IMG/VR virus record: IMGVR_UViG_3300045988_012363
Location: 1-6,152 of that record
Reading direction: 5' to 3' (one strand)
DNA from: a virus
Length of the DNA stretch: 6,152 nt
In this document: in pieces, positions 1 through 6,152 of the stretch
How the letters are laid out: each line of letters opens with the position of its first letter
Numbering within the stretch: the stretch's first letter is position 1
Translations under genes and position numbers: made by a program
The notes under the pieces: generated by a model
What the model was told of the DNA's origin: nothing
Databases searched by the model: none
What the model saw: the letters and a program-made list of their open reading frames with translations, nothing else

Positions 1-501
1 ATCTACGTTTTCATCCCTAAAAAATTCGTTCCAGATTTTTACATACGCTCTAATAGGCAGCGCGTTGACTTCGAATTTTCCTTTTACTTTTGTCGGCACT
101 CCCATGTAGTCTAAAATTGAGCCTTCGTTTGGGAGGCTTGTTTCTTTTGTACCGTTTATTTTGATCTGTGGCACTTTATATGTCTTTGTTGGCATCCATG
201 GCGTTTCCTCTACTTCTCCCATGAATTGCTTGAAATTATCCCATAGGATACGGTTTGGACAATAGAAATAGTAGAAGTCAATGAATGCATCGTCCATCAC
301 TGGATACTTCGGTGTACTCATTCGAATGATTGCTGCTGTATTTACGTTGAAGGTATCGCCCGGTAATACCTCGTCAACATAGAATGGAATCAGCTTGCCG
401 GAATCGAACGTTGTTAAAATTGTCTGGTCGCGGTTAAACCTCGTTCGACTTGCTTTCATTTCTGGAATCTGATTAAAGTGTCTTTCGTTGTTTCGATTCA
501 C
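1..501 (-). CDS. VP1: Major capsid protein (VP1 / phiX174 F-like), N-terminal 167 codons. The gene wraps the circular junction and continues at 6053 down to 4881.
   Basis: GTG at 501-499 lies 7 nt downstream of AAGGAGG (complement of 509-515). Hand translation gives VNRNNERHFNQIPEMKASRTRFNRDQTILTTFDSGKLIPFYVDEVLPGDTFNVNTAAIIRMSTPKYPVMDDAFIDFYYFYCPNRILWDNFKQFMGE..., the classic microvirus capsid N-terminus. The frame stays open to base 1 and is in frame with the 4881..6152 ORF (501-99 = 402, a multiple of 3). It is absent from the ORF track only because it has no stop inside the window. An alternative in-frame ATG at 459 has no comparable RBS. Confidence 0.9.
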   Translation of the reverse strand, partial: MNRNNERHFNQIPEMKASRTRFNRDQTILTTFDSGKLIPFYVDEVLPGDTFNVNTAAIIRMSTPKYPVMDDAFIDFYYFYCPNRILWDNFKQFMGEVEETPWMPTKTYKVPQIKINGTKETSLPNEGSILDYMGVPTKVKGKFEVNALPIRAYVKIWNEFFRDENVD

Positions 502-503
502 TT

Positions 504-896
504 TTATTCCTCCTTTGCTTCCGGTTCTGTTTTTGTTTCTGCTGCTGCCATTTTTTGCAGTTCTTCAAGTTTCATGGCGTTTGCCTGTGCGGTCGCTACC
601 ATTCGATGATACTCGTGAATGTTCTGCGGAAATTCCGTAATATCCGTGTATGTATCGTTTAATGCTCCCTCCGACAGACTTTTCAGAAACTGTGGGTCAA
701 AACTTGCTTTTCGGACAATGCTTTTGATATCACATTCATCCGCATAGCTTTCAATTTCCTGTTGGATGTCGATTGGTGCAGTTTCTTGCAGTACTTCTTG
801 CCCTTTTTCGTCCTTTGTCCAGACGTATTGTTTCTGGAATTTTTCTCCGCTTTCAGAAAAGAAGGGCTCTCGCCCTTCTTCATATCGTTTATTCAT
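504..896 (-). CDS. VP3: Internal scaffolding protein (VP3-like), 130 aa
   Basis: This is the in-frame ATG at 896 inside track ORF 504..1016, preceded by GGGAGGG. It overlaps the stop of the upstream gene by 8 nt (889-896), which suggests translational coupling. The product MNKRYEEGREPFF...ECDIKSIVRKASFDPQFLKSL...DITEFPQNIHEYHRM... has an acidic tail. Its position directly upstream of VP1 and the pattern of conserved residues fit gokushovirus VP3 as I recall it. The AAGGAGG for VP1 lies in its last codons. Confidence 0.7.
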   Translation of the reverse strand: MNKRYEEGREPFFSESGEKFQKQYVWTKDEKGQEVLQETAPIDIQQEIESYADECDIKSIVRKASFDPQFLKSLSEGALNDTYTDITEFPQNIHEYHRMVATAQANAMKLEELQKMAAAETKTEPEAKEE

Positions 897-1128
897 TCGG
901 CTTGCCCTCCCACACCTTTTTCTTGTCGTTGGTAAACTCACCGTTTTCGTCTTCAAACTCTGCCAACTTAAAGCCGGCGTAGTCACCAGGTGCCTGTCCG
1001 ACAAACGTTTTTTCATCCTTCGCCATTACGTTGCACATACGTGCAAAGGTTGCATCGTTCTTGCTCTCGCCTACCCATGCATAGCACTTTGCTACACTGT
1101 CCCACAGGCCAAAATATTCATGCTTCAT
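889..1128 (-). CDS. Small conserved non-structural protein (gokushovirus VP5-like), 79 aa
   Basis: ATG at 1128 follows GAAGGAGAG (complement of 1137-1145). The product is MKHEYFGLWDSVAKCYAWVGESKNDATFARMC...PGDYAGFKLAEFEDENGEF. This follows the pattern aromatic-x-x-D-x-x-A...N-D-x-x-A/F-x-R-M...P-x-D-Y...F-D/E-D-x-x-G that I recall for the small conserved protein of gut gokushoviruses. The family assignment is from memory and is not verified. Confidence 0.65.
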   Translation of the reverse strand: MKHEYFGLWDSVAKCYAWVGESKNDATFARMCNVMAKDEKTFVGQAPGDYAGFKLAEFEDENGEFTNDKKKVWEGKPNE

Positions 1129-1145
1129 GATGTTTACTCTCCTTC

Positions 1146-1247
1146 TTACAGCCGGATGCCACCGCGCATAGGTTTCTGGCTAAGGTTGATGGTTTTGGTT
1201 TTTCGTGCGGTTACGTTGAACATCCGGCGATCTTTTGCGCCGCTCAT
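1146..1247 (-). CDS. 33-aa highly basic peptide, putative DNA-condensing/packaging protein (phiX174 J / Chlamydia-phage ORF8 analogue)
   Basis: Hand translated as MSGAKDRRMFNVTARKTKTINLSQKPMRGGIRL, with stop TAA at 1146-1148. The ATG at 1247 lies 4 nt after the upstream stop (1252-1254), so translation may be coupled; there is no strong SD. It exactly fills the only gap between two genes. The K/R-rich sequence with a C-terminal RGGIRL matches my recollection of small basic microvirus peptides. It is too short for the ORF track. Confidence 0.6.
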   Translation of the reverse strand: MSGAKDRRMFNVTARKTKTINLSQKPMRGGIRL

Positions 1248-1251
1248 TACT

Positions 1252-1479
1252 TTACGATGTCTCGCCATTGTTGTACTCCCTTCTCATTAGTTCTAGTTCG
1301 ATGGCATTTGCAAAGTTTTTCATTTGCCAAATTTCTTCTGCTAGCTTTTTAGCGTCTTCGATGTTTGATACTTTTTTAAGCATCTTGTATTCGCCGTCAA
1401 TTTCTTTGTACTTTCGTTCGAGCAGGATTTCCAATGCTTCTTTGGTCTGGTCTCTTACGTTCCATGTTTTGTGCATCAT
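1252..1479 (-). CDS. Hypothetical protein, 75 aa, predicted mostly helical
   Basis: ATGATG at 1479-1474 lies within track ORF 1252..1548 and is preceded by AAGGAG (in the last codons of the upstream gene) with a 7-nt spacer. The product is MMHKTWNVRDQTKEALEILLERKYKEIDGEYKMLKKVSNIEDAKKLAEEIWQMKNFANAIELELMRREYNNGETS. I recognise no family. Confidence 0.6.
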   Translation of the reverse strand: MMHKTWNVRDQTKEALEILLERKYKEIDGEYKMLKKVSNIEDAKKLAEEIWQMKNFANAIELELMRREYNNGETS

Positions 1480-1483
1480 GGCT

Positions 1484-1606
1484 TTACTCCTTTTCGTTTT
1501 CGTTGATGCTATCATGCAGTGCGTGATAGATCTCGTCAAGCTTTTCAAGAATCTGCATCATGATGCGGATCGCCTGCTTGACATCCTTAATGGAAATCAG
1601 TGCCAT
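1484..1606 (-). CDS. Hypothetical protein, 40 aa
   Basis: The internal ATG at 1606 of track ORF 1484..1681 lies 1 nt after the peptidase stop (1608-1610). It is preceded by AAAGGGGG (complement of 1613-1620). The product is MALISIKDVKQAIRIMMQILEKLDEIYHALHDSINENEKE. Using the longer track start would force a 74-nt overlap with the peptidase gene and has no RBS. Confidence 0.5.
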   Translation of the reverse strand: MALISIKDVKQAIRIMMQILEKLDEIYHALHDSINENEKE

Positions 1607-1607
1607 T

Positions 1608-2000
1608 TTATACCCCCTTTCTGTATTTTTCATTTCGTGTGTCGAAATGTACCCAGTTGTCATATACGATGATACCGCCACTGTTTGGTACGATGCTGTT
1701 TAGCACTTTTGCAAGTTCCTTTGGCGTCACTCCGTTCGCTCTGATGTCTGCTGCCATGCCTCTTGTATGGTAGCTGTATTTTGCTCCTCCTACTTTTTGG
1801 TTGTGGCTTACTGTGCGGTATCCGCTTGTGATTACAATCGGTTTATTGATTTTTTTTCTTGCGATCTCTAGAATGATTGCCAAATAATCGTCAATGAATA
1901 CGATCGGTGTTCCGTCTTTGCATGCGAACTCTTTTACCTTGAAGTGGTCTGTAACTTGTTCGTTTCCTTGCTCTCCTGCTAGATATGCTTTGATTTCCAT
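1608..2000 (-). CDS. Peptidase M15A-type (Peptidase_M15_3, LAS-fold zinc D,D- or L,D-peptidase) cell-wall hydrolase, 130 aa
   Basis: The product contains ...KEFACKDG...PIVITSGYRTVSHNQKVGGAKYSYHTRGMAADI...WVHFD. This is the SGYR...N...GG...S-x-H-x-x-G-x-A-x-D plus distal H pattern of the M15A/LAS zinc peptidases. The putative Zn ligands are H78 (1767-1769), D85 (1746-1748) and H118 (1647-1649). No N-terminal signal peptide or transmembrane segment is visible. Confidence 0.85.
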   Translation of the reverse strand: MEIKAYLAGEQGNEQVTDHFKVKEFACKDGTPIVFIDDYLAIILEIARKKINKPIVITSGYRTVSHNQKVGGAKYSYHTRGMAADIRANGVTPKELAKVLNSIVPNSGGIIVYDNWVHFDTRNEKYRKGV

Positions 2001-2023
2001 GTTTTATTCTCTCTTTCGTCTTT

Positions 2024-2051
2024 ATTTTATCATGTTTTTGATTTTTGTCAA
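2024..2051 (-). promoter_or_regulatory. Putative internal sigma70/sigmaA promoter upstream of the peptidase gene
   Basis: On the minus strand the sequence reads TTGACA (2051-2046), a 16-nt spacer ending in TGA, then TAAAAT (2029-2024). That is a consensus -35, an extended -10 TGn and a 5/6 -10. It sits in the 55-nt gap between the upstream stop (2056-2058) and the ATG at 2000. Confidence 0.55.
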
Positions 2052-2055
2052 TTTT

Positions 2056-2226
2056 TTAAAACTCGAATGTTTGGTCTATTCTGTAAAGCGTTACTTTTGT
2101 TACGTTTGCTTCCTCTCTGCATTTTTTTGCTTTTTCCTTGGCGTCTTTGGTTGTCTCTATCCACGTTCTTTGTTCTTTTGTACCGTTTTTGAAATATACT
2201 CTCACCAAAAATTTGTACTCTTTCAT
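2056..2226 (-). CDS. Hypothetical protein, 56 aa
   Basis: Hand translated as MKEYKFLVRVYFKNGTKEQRTWIETTKDAKEKAKKCREEANVTKVTLYRIDQTFEF, with stop TAA at 2056-2058. The ATG at 2226 is preceded by GAGAGG. The sequence looks like a natural small beta-alpha-beta protein. It is below the ORF-track length cutoff. It competes with the alternative-frame track ORF 2048..2317. Confidence 0.55.
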   Translation of the reverse strand: MKEYKFLVRVYFKNGTKEQRTWIETTKDAKEKAKKCREEANVTKVTLYRIDQTFEF

Positions 2227-2238
2227 ATTGCTTACCTC

Positions 2239-2418
2239 TCAAAACCATGCTATTTTTTTCTCTTTGTCCAATTGATTGATTCTTTGTCTTGTGAGTTGCC
2301 CCGATCGGCTCTCCCACTCGCCCGTTTTTTTGTTTGTGGTGTATGGTTCTCTCATGAATCCACCTATACTAGGTGTGTATCCGATCACCTTTCCTTTTTC
2401 GTTGTATTTGTATGGCAT
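2239..2418 (-). CDS. Hypothetical protein, 59 aa, first gene after the main promoter
   Basis: The internal ATG at 2418 of track ORF 2239..2472 is preceded by AAGGGGG (complement of 2427-2433) with an 8-nt spacer. The longer track start would lie inside the promoter itself. The product is MPYKYNEKGKVIGYTPSIGGFMREPYTTNKKTGEWESRSGQLTRQRINQLDKEKKIAWF. Confidence 0.55.
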   Translation of the reverse strand: MPYKYNEKGKVIGYTPSIGGFMREPYTTNKKTGEWESRSGQLTRQRINQLDKEKKIAWF

Positions 2419-2443
2419 AATGTTTGCCCCCTTTCTATGATCT

Positions 2444-2486
2444 ATTATATCACAGAATTTTACATTTGTCAAGTTTTTATTTTTTG
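2444..2486 (-). promoter_or_regulatory. Consensus sigma70/sigmaA promoter with extended -10 and an A/T-rich UP-like tract; likely the main phage promoter
   Basis: On the minus strand the sequence reads AAAAAATAAAAAC-TTGACA (2472-2467), a 17-nt spacer ending in TGA, then TATAAT (2449-2444). Both hexamers are perfect, the spacing is optimal and a TGn extension is present. It lies at the boundary between the gene-free region and the first gene of the co-oriented gene string. Confidence 0.75.
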
Positions 2487-2587
2487 CGCAGGTCTTGCTC
2501 CTTTGTTTTGAATGGCGCTTTAGCGCCTTGCCGTGCGTAGCGTATGCGGAGCTCGGCTAATCCATTCCTTGTTAGCGCTGTGCGCGT

Positions 2588-2699
2588 TTTCAACACTTTC
2601 AACACTTTCAACAGGTTTTCCACAAAATGTTGCACAATGATTTTCGGCATTTTGACGAACTTTCAACATTTCAACAATTTTTCAACAAATCTTTCAACA
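2588..2699. repeat. Array of seven exact TTTCAACA octamers (TGTTGAAA on the gene strand), all in the same orientation, in two clusters
   Basis: Exact copies lie at 2588-2595, 2597-2604 and 2606-2613 (period 9). Four more lie at 2661-2668, 2669-2676, 2680-2687 and 2692-2699 (periods 8, 11 and 12). Degenerate copies are TTTTCCACA at 2616-2624, TTTCAACT at 2746-2753 and TTTTCCACT at 2753-2761. Confidence 0.9.
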
Positions 2700-2842
2700 G
2701 TGTTTTTTGCTTTTTATTTACGCTTTAGCGTTAAATTTTAGTACTTTTCAACTTTTCCACTACCTCTACTACTACTCCTACAACAAGTTATATATTATAC
2801 AGCGCTTGTGAGCTTGCGAACAATAGCGCTAGCGCTCTATAG

Positions 2843-2885
2843 CGCGCGTGCGCGCGTGCGCGTTTCGCGCGCGTGCGCACGCGCG
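2843..2885. repeat. GC-rich inverted repeat forming a hairpin of alternating purine-pyrimidine sequence
   Basis: The sequence is cgcgcgtgcgcgcgtgcgcg-ttt-cgcgcgcgtgcgcacgcgcg. The stem has 20 paired positions (2843-2862 with 2866-2885): 18 Watson-Crick pairs and two G-T appositions (2854/2874 and 2857/2871). The loop is 3 nt. Both arms alternate purine and pyrimidine without interruption. Confidence 0.9.
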
Positions 2886-2903
2886 ATAAAGTATATCTAC
2901 TTG

Positions 2904-2921
2904 ATAGACTGAATAGACTGA
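2904..2921. repeat. Perfect tandem duplication of the 9-mer ATAGACTGA
   Basis: The copies are at 2904-2912 and 2913-2921. They overlap the 3' end of the first copy of the decamer TACTTGATAG (2898-2907). Confidence 0.9.
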
Positions 2922-2944
2922 TACATGGTGTCTTTAGACGACAA

Positions 2945-2978
2945 TAGCCCAGTACCTTACTTGATAGGTACTGGGCTA
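2945..2978 (-). terminator. 13-bp perfect hairpin with an 8-nt loop just downstream of the VP4 stop; candidate transcription terminator and/or replication-origin hairpin
   Basis: The stem pairs tagcccagtacct (2945-2957) with aggtactgggcta (2966-2978). The loop is tacttgat (2958-2965). On the gene strand it starts 11 nt after the VP4 stop and is followed by TTGTCGTCT, which is only a weak U-tract. The terminator call is therefore tentative. Confidence 0.45.
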
Positions 2979-2988
2979 GGTGACACCG

Positions 2989-4008
2989 TTAGAGTGTCCC
3001 TTTCTTTTTCATCTGCTTCTTGATCACTCTCTCTTTTGTTTTACACTGTTCTGCAAAGTCTGTGTTTTCGTACTTTAGTCTGTTTTCTGCAATTGCTGCT
3101 GCTTGTCTGTTCTGTTTAATTTTCCACAACCTTTGTGGGTTTTCAGCTTCCATCATTTTTTCATAATAACGTGGAATTTGTGCGTGCTTGCCGTTTGTGC
3201 ATTGGATATATCCTTGCCGCCAGATCTCTGCTTTGTGCTCTTGATAATAGTGATCGCCTAAACCCGGTTTGAGGCTCATACATGCGAATGGTTTTGTTTG
3301 CCCTAGCTCGTAGTATGCGTTTGCTTTTTGACCGTCTATCTCATACATTTTTTTTGTGACGTATCCTGCAACATATCTATATGTTTCTGGCACTGCTTGC
3401 GCTATCTGTATTTGACCCATGCCCCATAGGTCTTCTAGCCATTTACTTGTAAAGTATCCGTTGTGTTGTATCTTGTATAGGTGTTCTAGATCTGTTGGTT
3501 GCCATCCATACAGTATCATGTGATAGTGCGGTCTTGCTGTCTGTTCTCCGTATTCTCCCGCTACAAAATAGCGTAATTTGCCCCCATAAGCCTTCCTGAG
3601 ACGTTTTAAGAATTTTTGAATGTCAGTATATAGCAACGTTTGGACGCTTTCAGGGCGCTTCTCTCCCGGTTTCCAGACGTATTGTACTTTTCGCATGATT
3701 TCGCCTGTGTTTATTATCATGCCCGGTACATGATCATCATCATAGGTTAATGTTATAAACCAAACTTCTTCTTTTGGATAATCTCGTGCTTCTAATTCTA
3801 TTCGTGTTGTCCAATCCTCCCTTTGTCTGATTCTACATCCGATACATTGTCCACATGGTATCAACATGACATTTTTTTTGTACATCAGGTCTTCATATTT
3901 TAGCTGTTTTCCCGCTAACTGAGAAAAGCGGGAGAGTGAGTACACCCTCCCGCTAATGTTTTTGTCGTTAGGGTTGTACAGCCTTATTAATGGCTTGTAA
4001 CAACTCAT
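2989..4008 (-). CDS. VP4: Rolling-circle replication initiation protein (VP4 / phiX174 A-like HUH endonuclease), 339 aa
   Basis: The three microvirus Rep motifs are present. They are FITLTY, the HUH motif PHYHMILYG (H-Y-H at 3520-3528), and the double-tyrosine motif YVAGYVTKK (Y212 at 3373-3375, Y216 at 3361-3363; compare phiX174 A YVAKYVNKK). There is also an N-terminal CGQCIGC cysteine cluster. Its ATG overlaps the VP2 stop as ATGA (4005-4008). Confidence 0.95.
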   Translation of the reverse strand: MSCYKPLIRLYNPNDKNISGRVYSLSRFSQLAGKQLKYEDLMYKKNVMLIPCGQCIGCRIRQREDWTTRIELEARDYPKEEVWFITLTYDDDHVPGMIINTGEIMRKVQYVWKPGEKRPESVQTLLYTDIQKFLKRLRKAYGGKLRYFVAGEYGEQTARPHYHMILYGWQPTDLEHLYKIQHNGYFTSKWLEDLWGMGQIQIAQAVPETYRYVAGYVTKKMYEIDGQKANAYYELGQTKPFACMSLKPGLGDHYYQEHKAEIWRQGYIQCTNGKHAQIPRYYEKMMEAENPQRLWKIKQNRQAAAIAENRLKYENTDFAEQCKTKERVIKKQMKKKGTL

Positions 4009-4841
4009 TTTTTAATATCACCGCCTTTTCCGCCGTGCGTTGCTCCGGCTTTACTTTTGTGTGTTTTGCTTCCCTTTGGTACGTTTTTTTCAATTGCTTT
4101 GCTTGTGTCGTCTCCGATTCCGGTTAGTGCTTTCATCAGTCCGTAGGGTGTCATTTGCGTTGTGCTTAGCATTTGTTGCCAGCTTTGTGCCGCGTTGTAC
4201 CAGTCGCTTTTGCTCCAGCTGCTGCTTTCGTATGCGTTAGGTACAAATCCTCCGCTTCGGCTTACTCCTAGTGCGCTGCTGCTTGCAAGTCCCATACTTG
4301 CCCCACTGATTGTTCCTGCACTTCCTCCCGGTGTGCTTGCGCCGCCGTTTGCGAATGCTAAGATAGGGTTAATCCCTGCTTTTTTCATGTCCTCAACGGC
4401 TCGCTGGTACGCTGTGTTTGACATGTGCTCTTGCCATTCACGGTTTGCTAGTGCTTCTGCGCTGTTGTAGTTCATTGCTACACTGTTTTCGATGTGGTTG
4501 TATACGCCTTGCATGATTGCTTGTAGCGTGTTATAGCCCATCTGTTTTAACATACTCTGGCTGTTGTATTTGCCTTGCATGGCTCCTTCTTGTCCTTGGT
4601 ATGCGTATGCCTGTTTTAGCCAGTCGTTGACTTGCTGCACGTTGGTGCCCGCTTGACTTCCGCTTTCGGAGTGTCCGCCGCCTTGGCTTGTGCTGCCGCC
4701 GCTACTTTGGCTATTGCCTGTCTGTCCCCATCCGCCTAACGATCCGGCGATCTGTTTACCAGCGTTTGCAAATGTTCCAATTGTGTTTGCAATGTTTCCA
4801 GCTACGTTGAGCGCTGTTAAGAATCCTGAAAGTCCTGCCAT
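4005..4841 (-). CDS. VP2: Minor capsid / DNA pilot protein (VP2 / phiX174 H-like), 278 aa
   Basis: It contains the conserved gokushovirus VP2 core ...NREWQEHMSNTAYQRAVEDMKKAGINPILAF.... It has a hydrophobic glycine-rich N-terminus (MAGLSGFLTALNVAGNIANTIG) and two G/S-rich low-complexity stretches. It sits between VP1 and VP4. Confidence 0.9.
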   Translation of the reverse strand: MAGLSGFLTALNVAGNIANTIGTFANAGKQIAGSLGGWGQTGNSQSSGGSTSQGGGHSESGSQAGTNVQQVNDWLKQAYAYQGQEGAMQGKYNSQSMLKQMGYNTLQAIMQGVYNHIENSVAMNYNSAEALANREWQEHMSNTAYQRAVEDMKKAGINPILAFANGGASTPGGSAGTISGASMGLASSSALGVSRSGGFVPNAYESSSWSKSDWYNAAQSWQQMLSTTQMTPYGLMKALTGIGDDTSKAIEKNVPKGSKTHKSKAGATHGGKGGDIKK

Positions 4842-4870
4842 TTTAAAAATAGCCCGGATTTCTCCGGGCT
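4842..4870 (-). terminator. Intrinsic-terminator-like hairpin between VP1 and VP2
   Basis: On the gene strand the sequence is AGCCCGGA-GAAA-TCCGGGCT (4870-4851): an 8-bp stem with 6 GC pairs and a GNRA-type tetraloop. It is followed by ATTTTTAAA (4850-4842) and then the VP2 ATG at 4841. Confidence 0.55.
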
Positions 4871-4880
4871 TCCTCCTTTC

Positions 4881-6152
4881 TTACAGTTTGTACAAGCCCG
4901 GTACACTGTATAGTGGCATCCGTCTTGTGGTTTTGTTTGCTACGCGGATAGCTCCGAAAAATTGCGGCTCATTCTGTATGACGAGTGTTCGCGCAATTTC
5001 GTTTTTGCCTTCTTCCATCCAGCCTTGCGATAGTGTTGGTGCGGTTGTATAATTGTCTGCGTAGTGCCAGAAATCCAACGTGCCTGTTGCGTTGCTTCGC
5101 ATGAGGCCGCTTACCCGGTTTGGTTTCATTCGGTAGTCCGCCCAGGCCTCCTGGTAGCCGAACGTTTCTTCGTCCGTTTCCGTGCCGGTCAACATGATTT
5201 CCTTTTTCTTTACGGGCTGTTCGCCTAGATTTGCAAACTGCGGTACATAGTAGTCCAGTCTGTCTTCTCGGCTCCAGAAACGTTCCAAGCCTTGCTGATA
5301 ACTGCGATTGTGTCGCACACAACAGACACCAATTACAAATCCATGCTCTTCAAAAGATTTGGTAAAAGAGCTTTCGTTTATCGGCGTCACTGACATTGCA
5401 CCAGTTTCGCCCAGCGGTGTATTATCGTTTTCCGCTGTCTGCACGATTTGGTTGATATTGATGTGATATCTGCCGCCGCCCAGGTATTCTGGAATCTGTA
5501 CTGTTTTGTCGCTGATAGTTACATTCCACAGTGCTTGTACCTGTTCACGGTATCGGCTGCCGCCTCTAGCTAGTGCCTCGTAGTACTGCTGTACTGCTAC
5601 GGCTTTTCTCAAGTCGTTGATGGTTGTTGCGGTTACTGTGCTGAGGTCTGCGCCTAGATATGCTGCGTCTATTTCTGTGAGGTCTTTTTCGTAGGCGATT
5701 GATTTACCATTCAGCTGTACTGGAAATTTTCCATTAGCTGATACCATTCCGTTCAGCACGTTTTTTGTTGAGCTTTGTCCGTTTTGACTGAATCCAAGTA
5801 CGTTTAGATTTACTTCGTTTTTATTTTCCGCAGCTCCGCTGTATGCCTTTACCTCTGCGTTTCCTGTCATTGGAATTGTCACTGCCGGCCCGCGCTGAGG
5901 ATACGGTAAGCAGCTGGTAAAATAGTCATGGAATTTGTTTACTGGTAAGCACCTTCCGCCTTTATATGCTATTTTCAGCACTTGATCGATGCTTTCGGTG
6001 CTTGAGTCTTCGTATGTTACGTCAGCATCATCCGTTTTAATTACTGCTGCATTATCTACGTTTTCATCCCTAAAAAATTCGTTCCAGATTTTTACATACG
6101 CTCTAATAGGCAGCGCGTTGACTTCGAATTTTCCTTTTACTTTTGTCGGCAC
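4881..6152 (-). CDS. VP1: Major capsid protein (VP1 / F-like), C-terminal part. Bases 6054-6152 duplicate bases 1-99.
   Basis: The 423-aa track ORF contains ALPIRAYVKIWNEFFRDENV, GGSRYREQVQALWNV, IPEYLGGG and FVIGVCCVRH, and ends in FFGAIRVANKTTRRMPLYSVPGL. These are all typical microvirus capsid blocks. The M at 6152 in the track is an internal GTG (Val), not the start. The full gene runs 501..1 plus 6053..4881, which is 1674 nt and 557 aa. Confidence 0.93.
   Translation of the reverse strand: MPTKVKGKFEVNALPIRAYVKIWNEFFRDENVDNAAVIKTDDADVTYEDSSTESIDQVLKIAYKGGRCLPVNKFHDYFTSCLPYPQRGPAVTIPMTGNAEVKAYSGAAENKNEVNLNVLGFSQNGQSSTKNVLNGMVSANGKFPVQLNGKSIAYEKDLTEIDAAYLGADLSTVTATTINDLRKAVAVQQYYEALARGGSRYREQVQALWNVTISDKTVQIPEYLGGGRYHININQIVQTAENDNTPLGETGAMSVTPINESSFTKSFEEHGFVIGVCCVRHNRSYQQGLERFWSREDRLDYYVPQFANLGEQPVKKKEIMLTGTETDEETFGYQEAWADYRMKPNRVSGLMRSNATGTLDFWHYADNYTTAPTLSQGWMEEGKNEIARTLVIQNEPQFFGAIRVANKTTRRMPLYSVPGLYKL
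6054..6152. repeat. 99-nt exact direct terminal repeat (identical to 1-99), the overlap signature of a circular contig
   Basis: A base-by-base comparison shows 1-99 and 6054-6152 are identical. The repeat lies inside the capsid reading frame and preserves the frame across the junction. Confidence 0.95.

Follow-up and report, generated by a model that had tools for sequence, protein, structure and literature searches.

What use a microvirus could make of a cell-wall peptidase that has no visible route out of the cytoplasm is the question raised by IMG/VR virus record IMGVR_UViG_3300045988_012363, of which positions 1 to 6,152 (the window, 6,152 nt in full) were analysed. The window is coded on its minus strand, and all gene coordinates are given on its own numbering. 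Because bases 1-99 are repeated exactly and in direct orientation at 6054-6152, it is a circularly overlapping assembly and represents a complete gokushovirus-type genome with a unit length of 6,053 nt. The gene at 1608-2000, hereafter M15, is predicted from homology and modelling to encode a LAS-fold zinc peptidase of MEROPS M15A. The initial annotation had left its role open between lysis, entry and something else. We consider it rather probable that M15 was captured as an endolysin and helps to lyse a monoderm host, with passage through the membrane provided by another function, and we retain entry as a rival.

The M15 protein is a free-standing catalytic domain without extensions. It matched Pfam PF08291 (Peptidase_M15_3) with E=4.9e-22, at 78.5 bits against a cut-off of 23.2 and over profile positions 2-108 of 108, and it matched PHROG 894, 'endolysin', at 4.8e-41. 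The match to PF05951 stood just at the cut-off (27.2 versus 27) and covered the catalytic core only. A MepK identity was dropped since the similarity was far below threshold (42.7 bits against a cut-off of 185 for the NCBIfam equivalog NF053624 of MepK-type L,D-endopeptidases), and no twin-arginine translocation (Tat) signal was found. H78, D85 and H118 do not vary among 38 microvirus sequences and, like S59, R62 and D120, are invariant across 59 sequences that include tailed-phage-type homologs. In the alignment with the Zn DD-peptidase 1LBU, H78, D85 and R62 correspond to H154, D161 and R138, the first two of which are zinc ligands there. Judged by its sequence, the protein appears to possess the zinc-ligand pattern H-x6-D, a C-terminal His, and the substrate-binding arginine of an SGYR motif.

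Structure prediction agreed with the profile matches. An AlphaFold (AF2) model built from a more diverse alignment reached a predicted local distance difference test score (pLDDT) of 97.2 and a predicted template-modelling score of 0.90. It replaced an initial model from a shallow alignment, which had a pLDDT of 67.5 and weak fold matches. In Foldseek searches the model matched 1LBU, VanY, Ply500, ChiX, LysB4 and Shh-N (the Hedgehog N-domain) with probabilities of 0.96-1.0, and these predicted matches together make up the LAS fold set. It also superposes on tailed-phage peptidases with template-modelling scores of 0.92-0.96. Pairwise ratios of nonsynonymous to synonymous substitution rates (dN/dS) against 56 relatives ranged from 0.07 to 0.25 with a median of about 0.16, and the enzyme is therefore under purifying selection. 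With a profile score above the cut-off, a LAS fold and zinc ligands kept on alignment, the description in the initial annotation of a compact LAS-fold zinc peptidase with an intact H78/D85/H118 motif agrees with all of these results.

Both the gene class and the identical protein are already known. The M15 protein is 100% identical in amino acid sequence to 'peptidase M15' of GenBank KX513868 ('Human gut gokushovirus'), and the two genomes share 90% identity across 93% of the length. Homologs number more than 50 microvirus records in the GenBank phage collection, 216 in IMG/VR, and more than 1,200 in the protein database. M15_3 peptidases were reported from five gut Gokushovirinae and six Alpavirinae by Roux et al. 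(2012), who showed that they had been acquired horizontally, found their closest source in Faecalibacterium prausnitzii, suggested that they act as endolysins, speculated on Gram-positive hosts, and noted a complementary-strand open reading frame (ORF) beside one of the peptidases (PMC3394797). Among the accessory genes of microviruses that are associated with lysis, peptidases were later listed as the main ones (Kirchberger et al. 2022; PMC9239249), and Gp7 of microvirus Ebor is experimentally muralytic (PMC11980548). The initial annotation was thus right to suspect that the gene is not new. Its statement that such genes had been noted sporadically in virome-derived Microviridae is correct as to their being known and understates the documentation, to which PMC3394797 devotes a full section. 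What is added here is the clade-wide absence of transmembrane (TM) ORFs, a holin-like ORF in one relative, Oscillospiraceae prophages, promoter statistics, and the lysis-cassette context of the homologs.

That context bears on function. The nearest homologs outside the microviruses are single-domain endolysins of Faecalibacterium phages, with 47% identity. Two ORFs follow the M15 gene in FP_Toutatis, one of 131 aa whose TM segment is N-terminal and one of 105 aa whose TM segment is C-terminal. In P0200, from human-gut prophage contigs and with 50% identity, the order is a CmpB-like membrane protein, M15, a 106-aa ORF, and Holin_SPP1 (PF04688). Since these homologs are flanked by membrane proteins or Holin_SPP1, the donor lineage by analogy appears to use M15 as a holin-dependent endolysin. 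Of the features of a canonical holin-endolysin system, homology to muralytic enzymes is therefore present in the window, both through PHROG 894 and through the homologs of 47-50% identity in lysis cassettes. The gene is accessory, being missing from three relatives (L098, L099, and L100 in our numbering of related genomes).

Large tail or virion proteins of tailed phages (800-1190 aa, Gp5-OB fusions) can also contain M15A domains. In a rival reading M15 would be packaged in or attached to the virion as a kind of virion-associated peptidoglycan hydrolase, and would digest the thick wall of a monoderm host locally so that the VP2 pilot tube delivers the DNA. An enzyme of this kind would have a parallel in Ebor Gp7, which was found in trace amounts in virions (PMC11980548). 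It would need no holin, which would account for the missing export route, and a T=1 phage without a tail would have real difficulty in penetrating a host that is likely monoderm. We nevertheless hold this role in entry to be distinctly unlikely. The closest relatives of M15 are endolysins in lysis cassettes rather than structural fusions, and in the model both termini lie within the compact fold, which would leave no extension to serve as a capsid anchor. No hydrolase domain was detected in VP1, VP2 or VP3 by Pfam and PHROG searches. One relative, L019, pairs M15 with a holin-like ORF, as described below. Relatives of the same clade that lack M15 presumably enter similar hosts, and the M15-bearing genomes are larger than theirs (5.6-6.05 kb versus 5.2-5.3 kb), which leaves less room in a T=1 capsid.

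Whether a membrane partner accompanies M15 was determined by a hydropathy scan of all three coding-strand frames, in which a 19-residue window with a Kyte-Doolittle value (KD19) of at least 1.6 was counted as TM-grade. The coding strand of the window, including frames that overlap genes, contained no such segment; the best value, 1.32, belonged to a 35-aa alternative-frame ORF inside VP1 (5332-5225). About 66 of 79 relatives likewise had no TM-grade segment in the coding strand. Their scarcity fits the extreme base skew of that strand (A 38%, T 18%). The antisense strand of the window genome yielded 99-107 TM-grade windows, and spurious hydrophobic ORFs abound there. Residues 1-40 of M15 showed no hydrophobic h-region, twin-arginine motif or lipobox in a heuristic test. 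In the model, residues 3-7 belong to a beta-strand within the domain fold, and pLDDT is above 93 from residue 1. Hence the window holds neither a holin nor, by the heuristic test, a Sec or signal-arrest-release (SAR) secretory signal, and the coding-strand frames contain no small TM-containing overprinted protein of the phiX174 E amurin type. The initial annotation, which saw no signal peptide and no membrane-spanning minus-strand ORF that could act as a holin, is borne out on both counts.

A partner might still be hidden as an antisense or overprinted protein or as a very weakly hydrophobic holin, and lysis would then be of the ordinary two-component kind. A very hydrophobic 205-aa antisense ORF runs across the M15 start (1894-2511, plus strand), and one peptidase in Roux 2012 (PMC3394797) likewise has a complementary-strand ORF beside it; the VP1-internal ORF mentioned above has the top hydrophobicity of the coding strand. 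We give this idea very little credence. The antisense frame is not conserved: it stays open for a median of 75 codons in relatives, only 3 of 80 reach 150, and shuffled sequences give a frame of at least 205 codons 6% of the time. The antisense strands of the 80 genomes carry no strong promoter, and hydrophobicity is a by-product of a T-rich strand. The 205-aa ORF is a chance product of that stop-poor, T-rich strand and was rejected as a membrane partner. The start codon of the VP1-internal ORF is TTG, and its weakly hydrophobic residues number only about 16; the TM ORF of L019 lies in an insertion missing from its relatives.

Other candidates were rejected as well. The product of orf40, which directly follows M15 and is translationally coupled to it, was considered as a dedicated chaperone or membrane-active partner. 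It begins 1 nt past the M15 stop, with its GGGGG Shine-Dalgarno sequence inside the M15 3' end, and is present in nearly all relatives, including all three that lack M15. It had no family match and is left unannotated in GenBank records. We conclude that orf40 is a core gene of the clade and not an M15-specific partner, although it may have a more general role. A hydrophobic stretch 'LLYGHILLLCAVPSAVGAL', conserved in a subgroup of relatives (L037, L038, L044, L056 and L070; e.g. L038:5377), is read in an alternative frame within the 5' part of VP1; it has no ORF defined by a start codon and no counterpart in the window, and its conservation may mirror that of VP1. A small TM-grade peptide in L099 (position 3972) was not part of any start-codon ORF in a scan for ORFs of at least 25 aa.

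Direct contextual support for a role in lysis comes from L019 (78% identity). This genome carries a 46-aa holin-like ORF, METLAAVGIIIAIIGMTAATASLIILMVQMVKDMKGESKKWKSNHM (L019:2802-2942), which has a GAGG Shine-Dalgarno sequence and encodes a single TM helix and a charged C-terminus. At its 3' end the ORF overlaps the start of M15, and its slot corresponds to that of orf56 in the window. By analogy, the arrangement would be a classic holin-endolysin pair. The ORF sits in an insertion absent from the nearest relatives, L012 and L018. Neither this ORF nor the TM ORFs of the prophages described below matched anything in Pfam, PHROGs or the GenBank phage collection, and they are holin-like by topology and position only. 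Two of the relatives without M15, L098 and L100, have no TM ORF either. Because these phages must still leave their hosts, the clade must have a core exit mechanism that needs neither M15 nor a TM ORF.

A way for the enzyme to act without any export would be cleavage of wall precursors (UDP-MurNAc-pentapeptide, lipid II) in the cytoplasm, in the manner of VanX and VanY. M15 would then be a protein antibiotic acting by catalysis, independent of a holin; wall synthesis would be starved, and the cell would lyse. The structural neighbours 1LBU (a DD-peptidase), VanY and VanXYc act on D-Ala-D-Ala precursor termini, and M15 without a membrane protein in most genomes of the clade would be accounted for. 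The idea also parallels small-phage lysis aimed at the precursor pathway, which is the target of phiX174 E, Qbeta A2 and M Lys. We judge it very improbable, however. The tailed-phage homologs of 47-50% identity are kept beside holins, which implies that they do no harm in the cytoplasm until released, L019 has its holin-like ORF, and the M15 sequence is equally compatible with specificity for precursor and for polymer. We know of no experimental precedent for an endolysin-family enzyme that lyses cells via precursor cleavage.

The promoter P2 lies between orf56 and M15. It is a near-consensus sigma-70 promoter with 11 of 12 matches and a TG extension at 2032-2031, ends 23 nt ahead of the M15 ATG, and is among only two sites with at least 10 of 12 matches on the coding strand of the window. 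In the window and 79 related genomes (80 genomes in all), sites scoring at least 11 of 12 numbered 75 on the coding strands, 0 on the antisense strands and about 3.5 in shuffled sequences, which amounts to about 20-fold enrichment on the coding strands of the clade. Nearly half of the strong coding-strand sites (37 of 75) end no more than 60 nt from the M15 start. Given this enrichment and proximity, the P2 element is real and recurs in relatives. However, it does not belong to M15 alone. No other promoter and no terminator was found between M15 and the downstream genes of the window, and in relatives without M15 the same spacer contains sigma-70-like promoters. M15 therefore heads a structural operon that reads on to VP3 and VP1. 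The initial annotation had given M15 its own near-consensus promoter with an extended -10; the site stands, whereas M15-specific regulation was rejected in favour of an operon promoter. Downstream of P1 and P2, the coding strand has a single strong terminator-like site, a hairpin with a T-run just past the VP1 stop, where transcripts from both promoters likely end; a weaker one of 6 pairs is located at 989-974 within the VP3/VP5 coding region.

To place the host, VP1 was searched against one genome per species. Gokushovirus-type prophages were found within Bacillota contigs of 76-317 kb, including those of the isolates Oscillibacter sp. PC13 and Muriventricola aceti, both members of the Oscillospiraceae, the same family as Faecalibacterium. 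The PC13 prophage (L087:5307-10563, NZ_FOXE01000003.1) is 5,225 nt long, and 32-nt direct repeats that have a dif-like inverted core form its boundaries. The genes are arranged as VP4, the Arg-rich ORF, M15 (48% identity), VP5, VP3, VP1 and VP2, followed by a 42-aa TM ORF (10207-10335). Single-TM ORFs of 32-42 aa with good Shine-Dalgarno sequences stand directly after VP2 in the Oscillospiraceae prophages; in the window VP2 and VP4 overlap, and there is therefore no slot for such an ORF. The GC mismatch of the window (44% versus 56-57% in Faecalibacterium-like hosts) was dropped as an argument against an Oscillospiraceae host, since the PC13 prophage, at 44% GC inside a 56% GC chromosome, shows the same mismatch. 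A Bacillota host is also in keeping with the GGAG-type Shine-Dalgarno sequences and the TG-extended sigma-70 promoters. From these sequence data, the host would be a monoderm of the Oscillospiraceae type; we infer it at the level of family or order only, because prophage and window VP1 share no more than 40-46% identity.

The M. aceti H5_61 prophage (L096:5868-11192) carries no M15; its TM ORF, of 32 aa and with an AAGGAGG Shine-Dalgarno sequence, lies between VP2 and VP4. VP4 of this prophage appears split into a C-terminal part (6167-6499) and an N-terminal part (10518-11192), with a run of N at about 5868-6212.

On the basis of these observations, we propose that the lineage of gut gokushoviruses to which the window belongs acquired M15 from tailed phages of Oscillospiraceae (Clostridia). 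The enzyme would be a soluble peptidase made in the cytoplasm. The P2 transcript would read M15, orf40, the VP5 and VP3 genes, and VP1, so that M15 would be made together with the structural proteins. Late in infection it would cleave the peptide moiety of the host peptidoglycan, and this cleavage would permit or speed the release of virions through the monoderm wall. Since M15 has no signal peptide or SAR domain and the genome no holin-type membrane protein, access to the wall would depend on a membrane lesion from something else, most likely the core gokushovirus lysis function. M15 would thus be an accessory that improves release.

Several points weigh against the endolysin reading. The peptidoglycan-cleaving activity of M15 is predicted from homology. 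The occurrence of M15A domains in virion proteins makes the fold alone compatible with exit as well as entry. Holin, signal peptide and SAR domain are absent here and in about 66 of the 79 relatives; the second component of endolysin lysis is therefore missing, and the step by which the enzyme would reach the wall is purely inferred. The low VP1 identity to the prophages loosens the link to the host. Finally, the Shine-Dalgarno sequence of M15 is weak in the window, where relatives mostly have AGGAG or GAGG.

We regard as unlikely the broader proposition that the whole Oscillospiraceae-infecting gokushovirus clade lyses by an endolysin without a holin, through a moonlighting structural protein or attack on precursors. 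VP2 would be the obvious candidate for a moonlighting role in membrane passage: its N-terminus is the most hydrophobic segment among the real proteins of the genome (KD19 about 1.0-1.3), and this weakly hydrophobic, Gly/Ala-rich stretch resembles a segment of the SAR or pinholin type. If true, holin-less lysis would be a third phage lysis strategy, between amurin and holin-endolysin, and a first handle on the gokushovirus lysis mechanism.

The coordinates of the features are collected in Table 1. The gene set is of the Gokushovirinae type, with VP1 (Phage_F), the VP2 pilot protein, VP4 Rep, a VP3 scaffold of the Chlamydia-phage type and VP5, all on one strand. The order on the coding strand is VP1, VP2, VP4, a non-coding region of ~340 nt, small accessory ORFs and M15, followed by orf40, a 98-aa ORF, an Arg-rich 40-aa ORF, VP5 and VP3. 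Whole VP1 has 543 aa and runs from 459 to 1 and then from 6053 to 4881. Among the accessory ORFs, orf56 was found in only about 3 relatives and had no family matches in Pfam, PHROGs and NCBIfam searches.

Table 1. Features of the window discussed in the text, in window coordinates
Feature	Coordinates	Strand	Details
M15A / Peptidase_M15_3 gene (M15)	1608..2000	-	ATG start, 130 aa, 14.6 kDa, isoelectric point (pI) 9.3
Shine-Dalgarno-like sequence of M15	2009..2016	-	AAAGAGAG, weak; upstream of M15 ATG
Promoter P2	2024..2051	-	-35 TTGACA (2051-2046), 16-nt spacer, -10 TAAAAT (2029-2024)
Promoter P1	2444..2472	-	perfect TTGACA-17 nt-TATAAT with TG extension, upstream of orf59 and orf56
orf40	1484..1606	-	40 aa, MALISIKDVKQAIRIMMQILEKL... 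/ MALISIKDVKQAIRIMMQILEKLDEIYHAL..., strongly amphipathic, hydrophobic moment (muH) 0.70
orf56, hydrophilic accessory ORF	2056..2226	-	variable slot directly upstream of P2 and M15
orf59, accessory ORF	2239..2418	-	MPYKYNEKGK...; first ORF after P1, GGGGG Shine-Dalgarno
VP2 pilot protein	4005..4841	-	Gly/Ala-rich N-terminus MAGLSGFLTALNVAG...
Intrinsic-terminator-like hairpin and T-run	4851..4870	-	just past VP1 stop; 8 pairs, 6 G-C
VP1 major capsid protein, C-terminal 423 codons	4881..6152	-	Pfam Phage_F E=1.9e-100
VP1 5' part	1..459	-	start ATG at 459; N-terminal part is 459..100 after circularisation

The Arg/Lys-rich 40-aa ORF (1146-1268, minus strand) has 12 basic residues and 1 acidic residue and is kept across the clade and in Bacillota prophages; it is probably a DNA-condensing protein of the J/VP8 type. 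The large non-coding region that follows VP4 (2590-2988, minus strand) contains a hairpin with a 12-bp stem, TAGCCCAGTACC-N9-GGTACTGGGCTA (2976-2943), a GC-rich palindromic tract of alternating CG/CA (2885-2840), and seven iteron-like TGTTGAAA repeats (2700-2590). This region may act as an origin or in regulation; no Rfam family matched anywhere in the window. The iteron-like repeats are overlapped by 'orf57' (2477-2650), which is unusually well conserved in distant relatives; this conservation may reflect a cis-element rather than a protein.

M15 is a textbook case of rare horizontal gene capture in microviruses and serves as a host marker. Together with the Oscillospiraceae prophages, it supports the view that abundant gokushoviruses of the human and pig gut infect Gram-positive Clostridia, including relatives of Faecalibacterium. 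A cytoplasmic endolysin in a genome without a coding-strand TM helix bears on the long-standing question of gokushovirus lysis, and the cultured lysogen Oscillibacter sp. PC13, with its related M15-bearing prophage, makes the export question testable. The same prophage might be used to study gokushovirus lysis experimentally in a Gram-positive host. In addition, M15 is a compact candidate enzybiotic against Oscillospiraceae.

Among known systems, single-gene lysis as by phiX174 E resembles the window in its setting: a small ssDNA or ssRNA phage with minimal coding capacity and a wall to breach. However, E acts by inhibiting MraY and is an overprinted TM protein without enzymatic activity, whereas the window appears to encode a true hydrolase and has no coding-strand TM segment. 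The best match among solved structures is the zinc D-Ala-D-Ala carboxypeptidase of Streptomyces albus G (1LBU; profile E=1.7e-8, fold probability 1.0), the type enzyme of MEROPS M15A, and M15 aligns with it at the SxHxxGxAxD zinc motif and at the substrate arginine. The Streptomyces enzyme differs in being secreted, in its length of 213 aa and in an extra N-terminal peptidoglycan-binding domain; at 21-27% identity over the catalytic core, its bond specificity is not transferable to M15.

The M15 enzymes of Oscillospiraceae tailed phages (FP_Toutatis, Lelie, Aster; P0200) are closer, with 47-50% identity over the full length, and share with the window enzyme a single domain of 130-140 aa, the same invariant catalytic residues and a basic pI. 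Their genes are flanked by membrane proteins or Holin_SPP1, whereas the microvirus gene is not, and the microvirus enzyme lacks a 7-residue loop (PVKAGRP) found in theirs before the last Zn-ligand strand. Ebor Gp7 ('Tainavirinae'; PMC11980548), like M15, is an accessory peptidoglycan hydrolase of a microvirus, and its degradation of peptidoglycan was demonstrated experimentally. In contrast to the window virus, Ebor infects a diderm alphaproteobacterium and also encodes a 45-aa predicted membrane protein, Gp1; Gp7 matched another template (6SSC), and its likeness to M15 is one of description. Finally, the M15_3 peptidases of gut Gokushovirinae (Roux 2012, PMC3394797; KX513868) belong to the same Pfam family, with the same Faecalibacterium affinity and the same endolysin proposal. 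The window shows no material difference from this group and is another isolate of it, and its remaining interest lies in the holin-less configuration, now documented across the clade.

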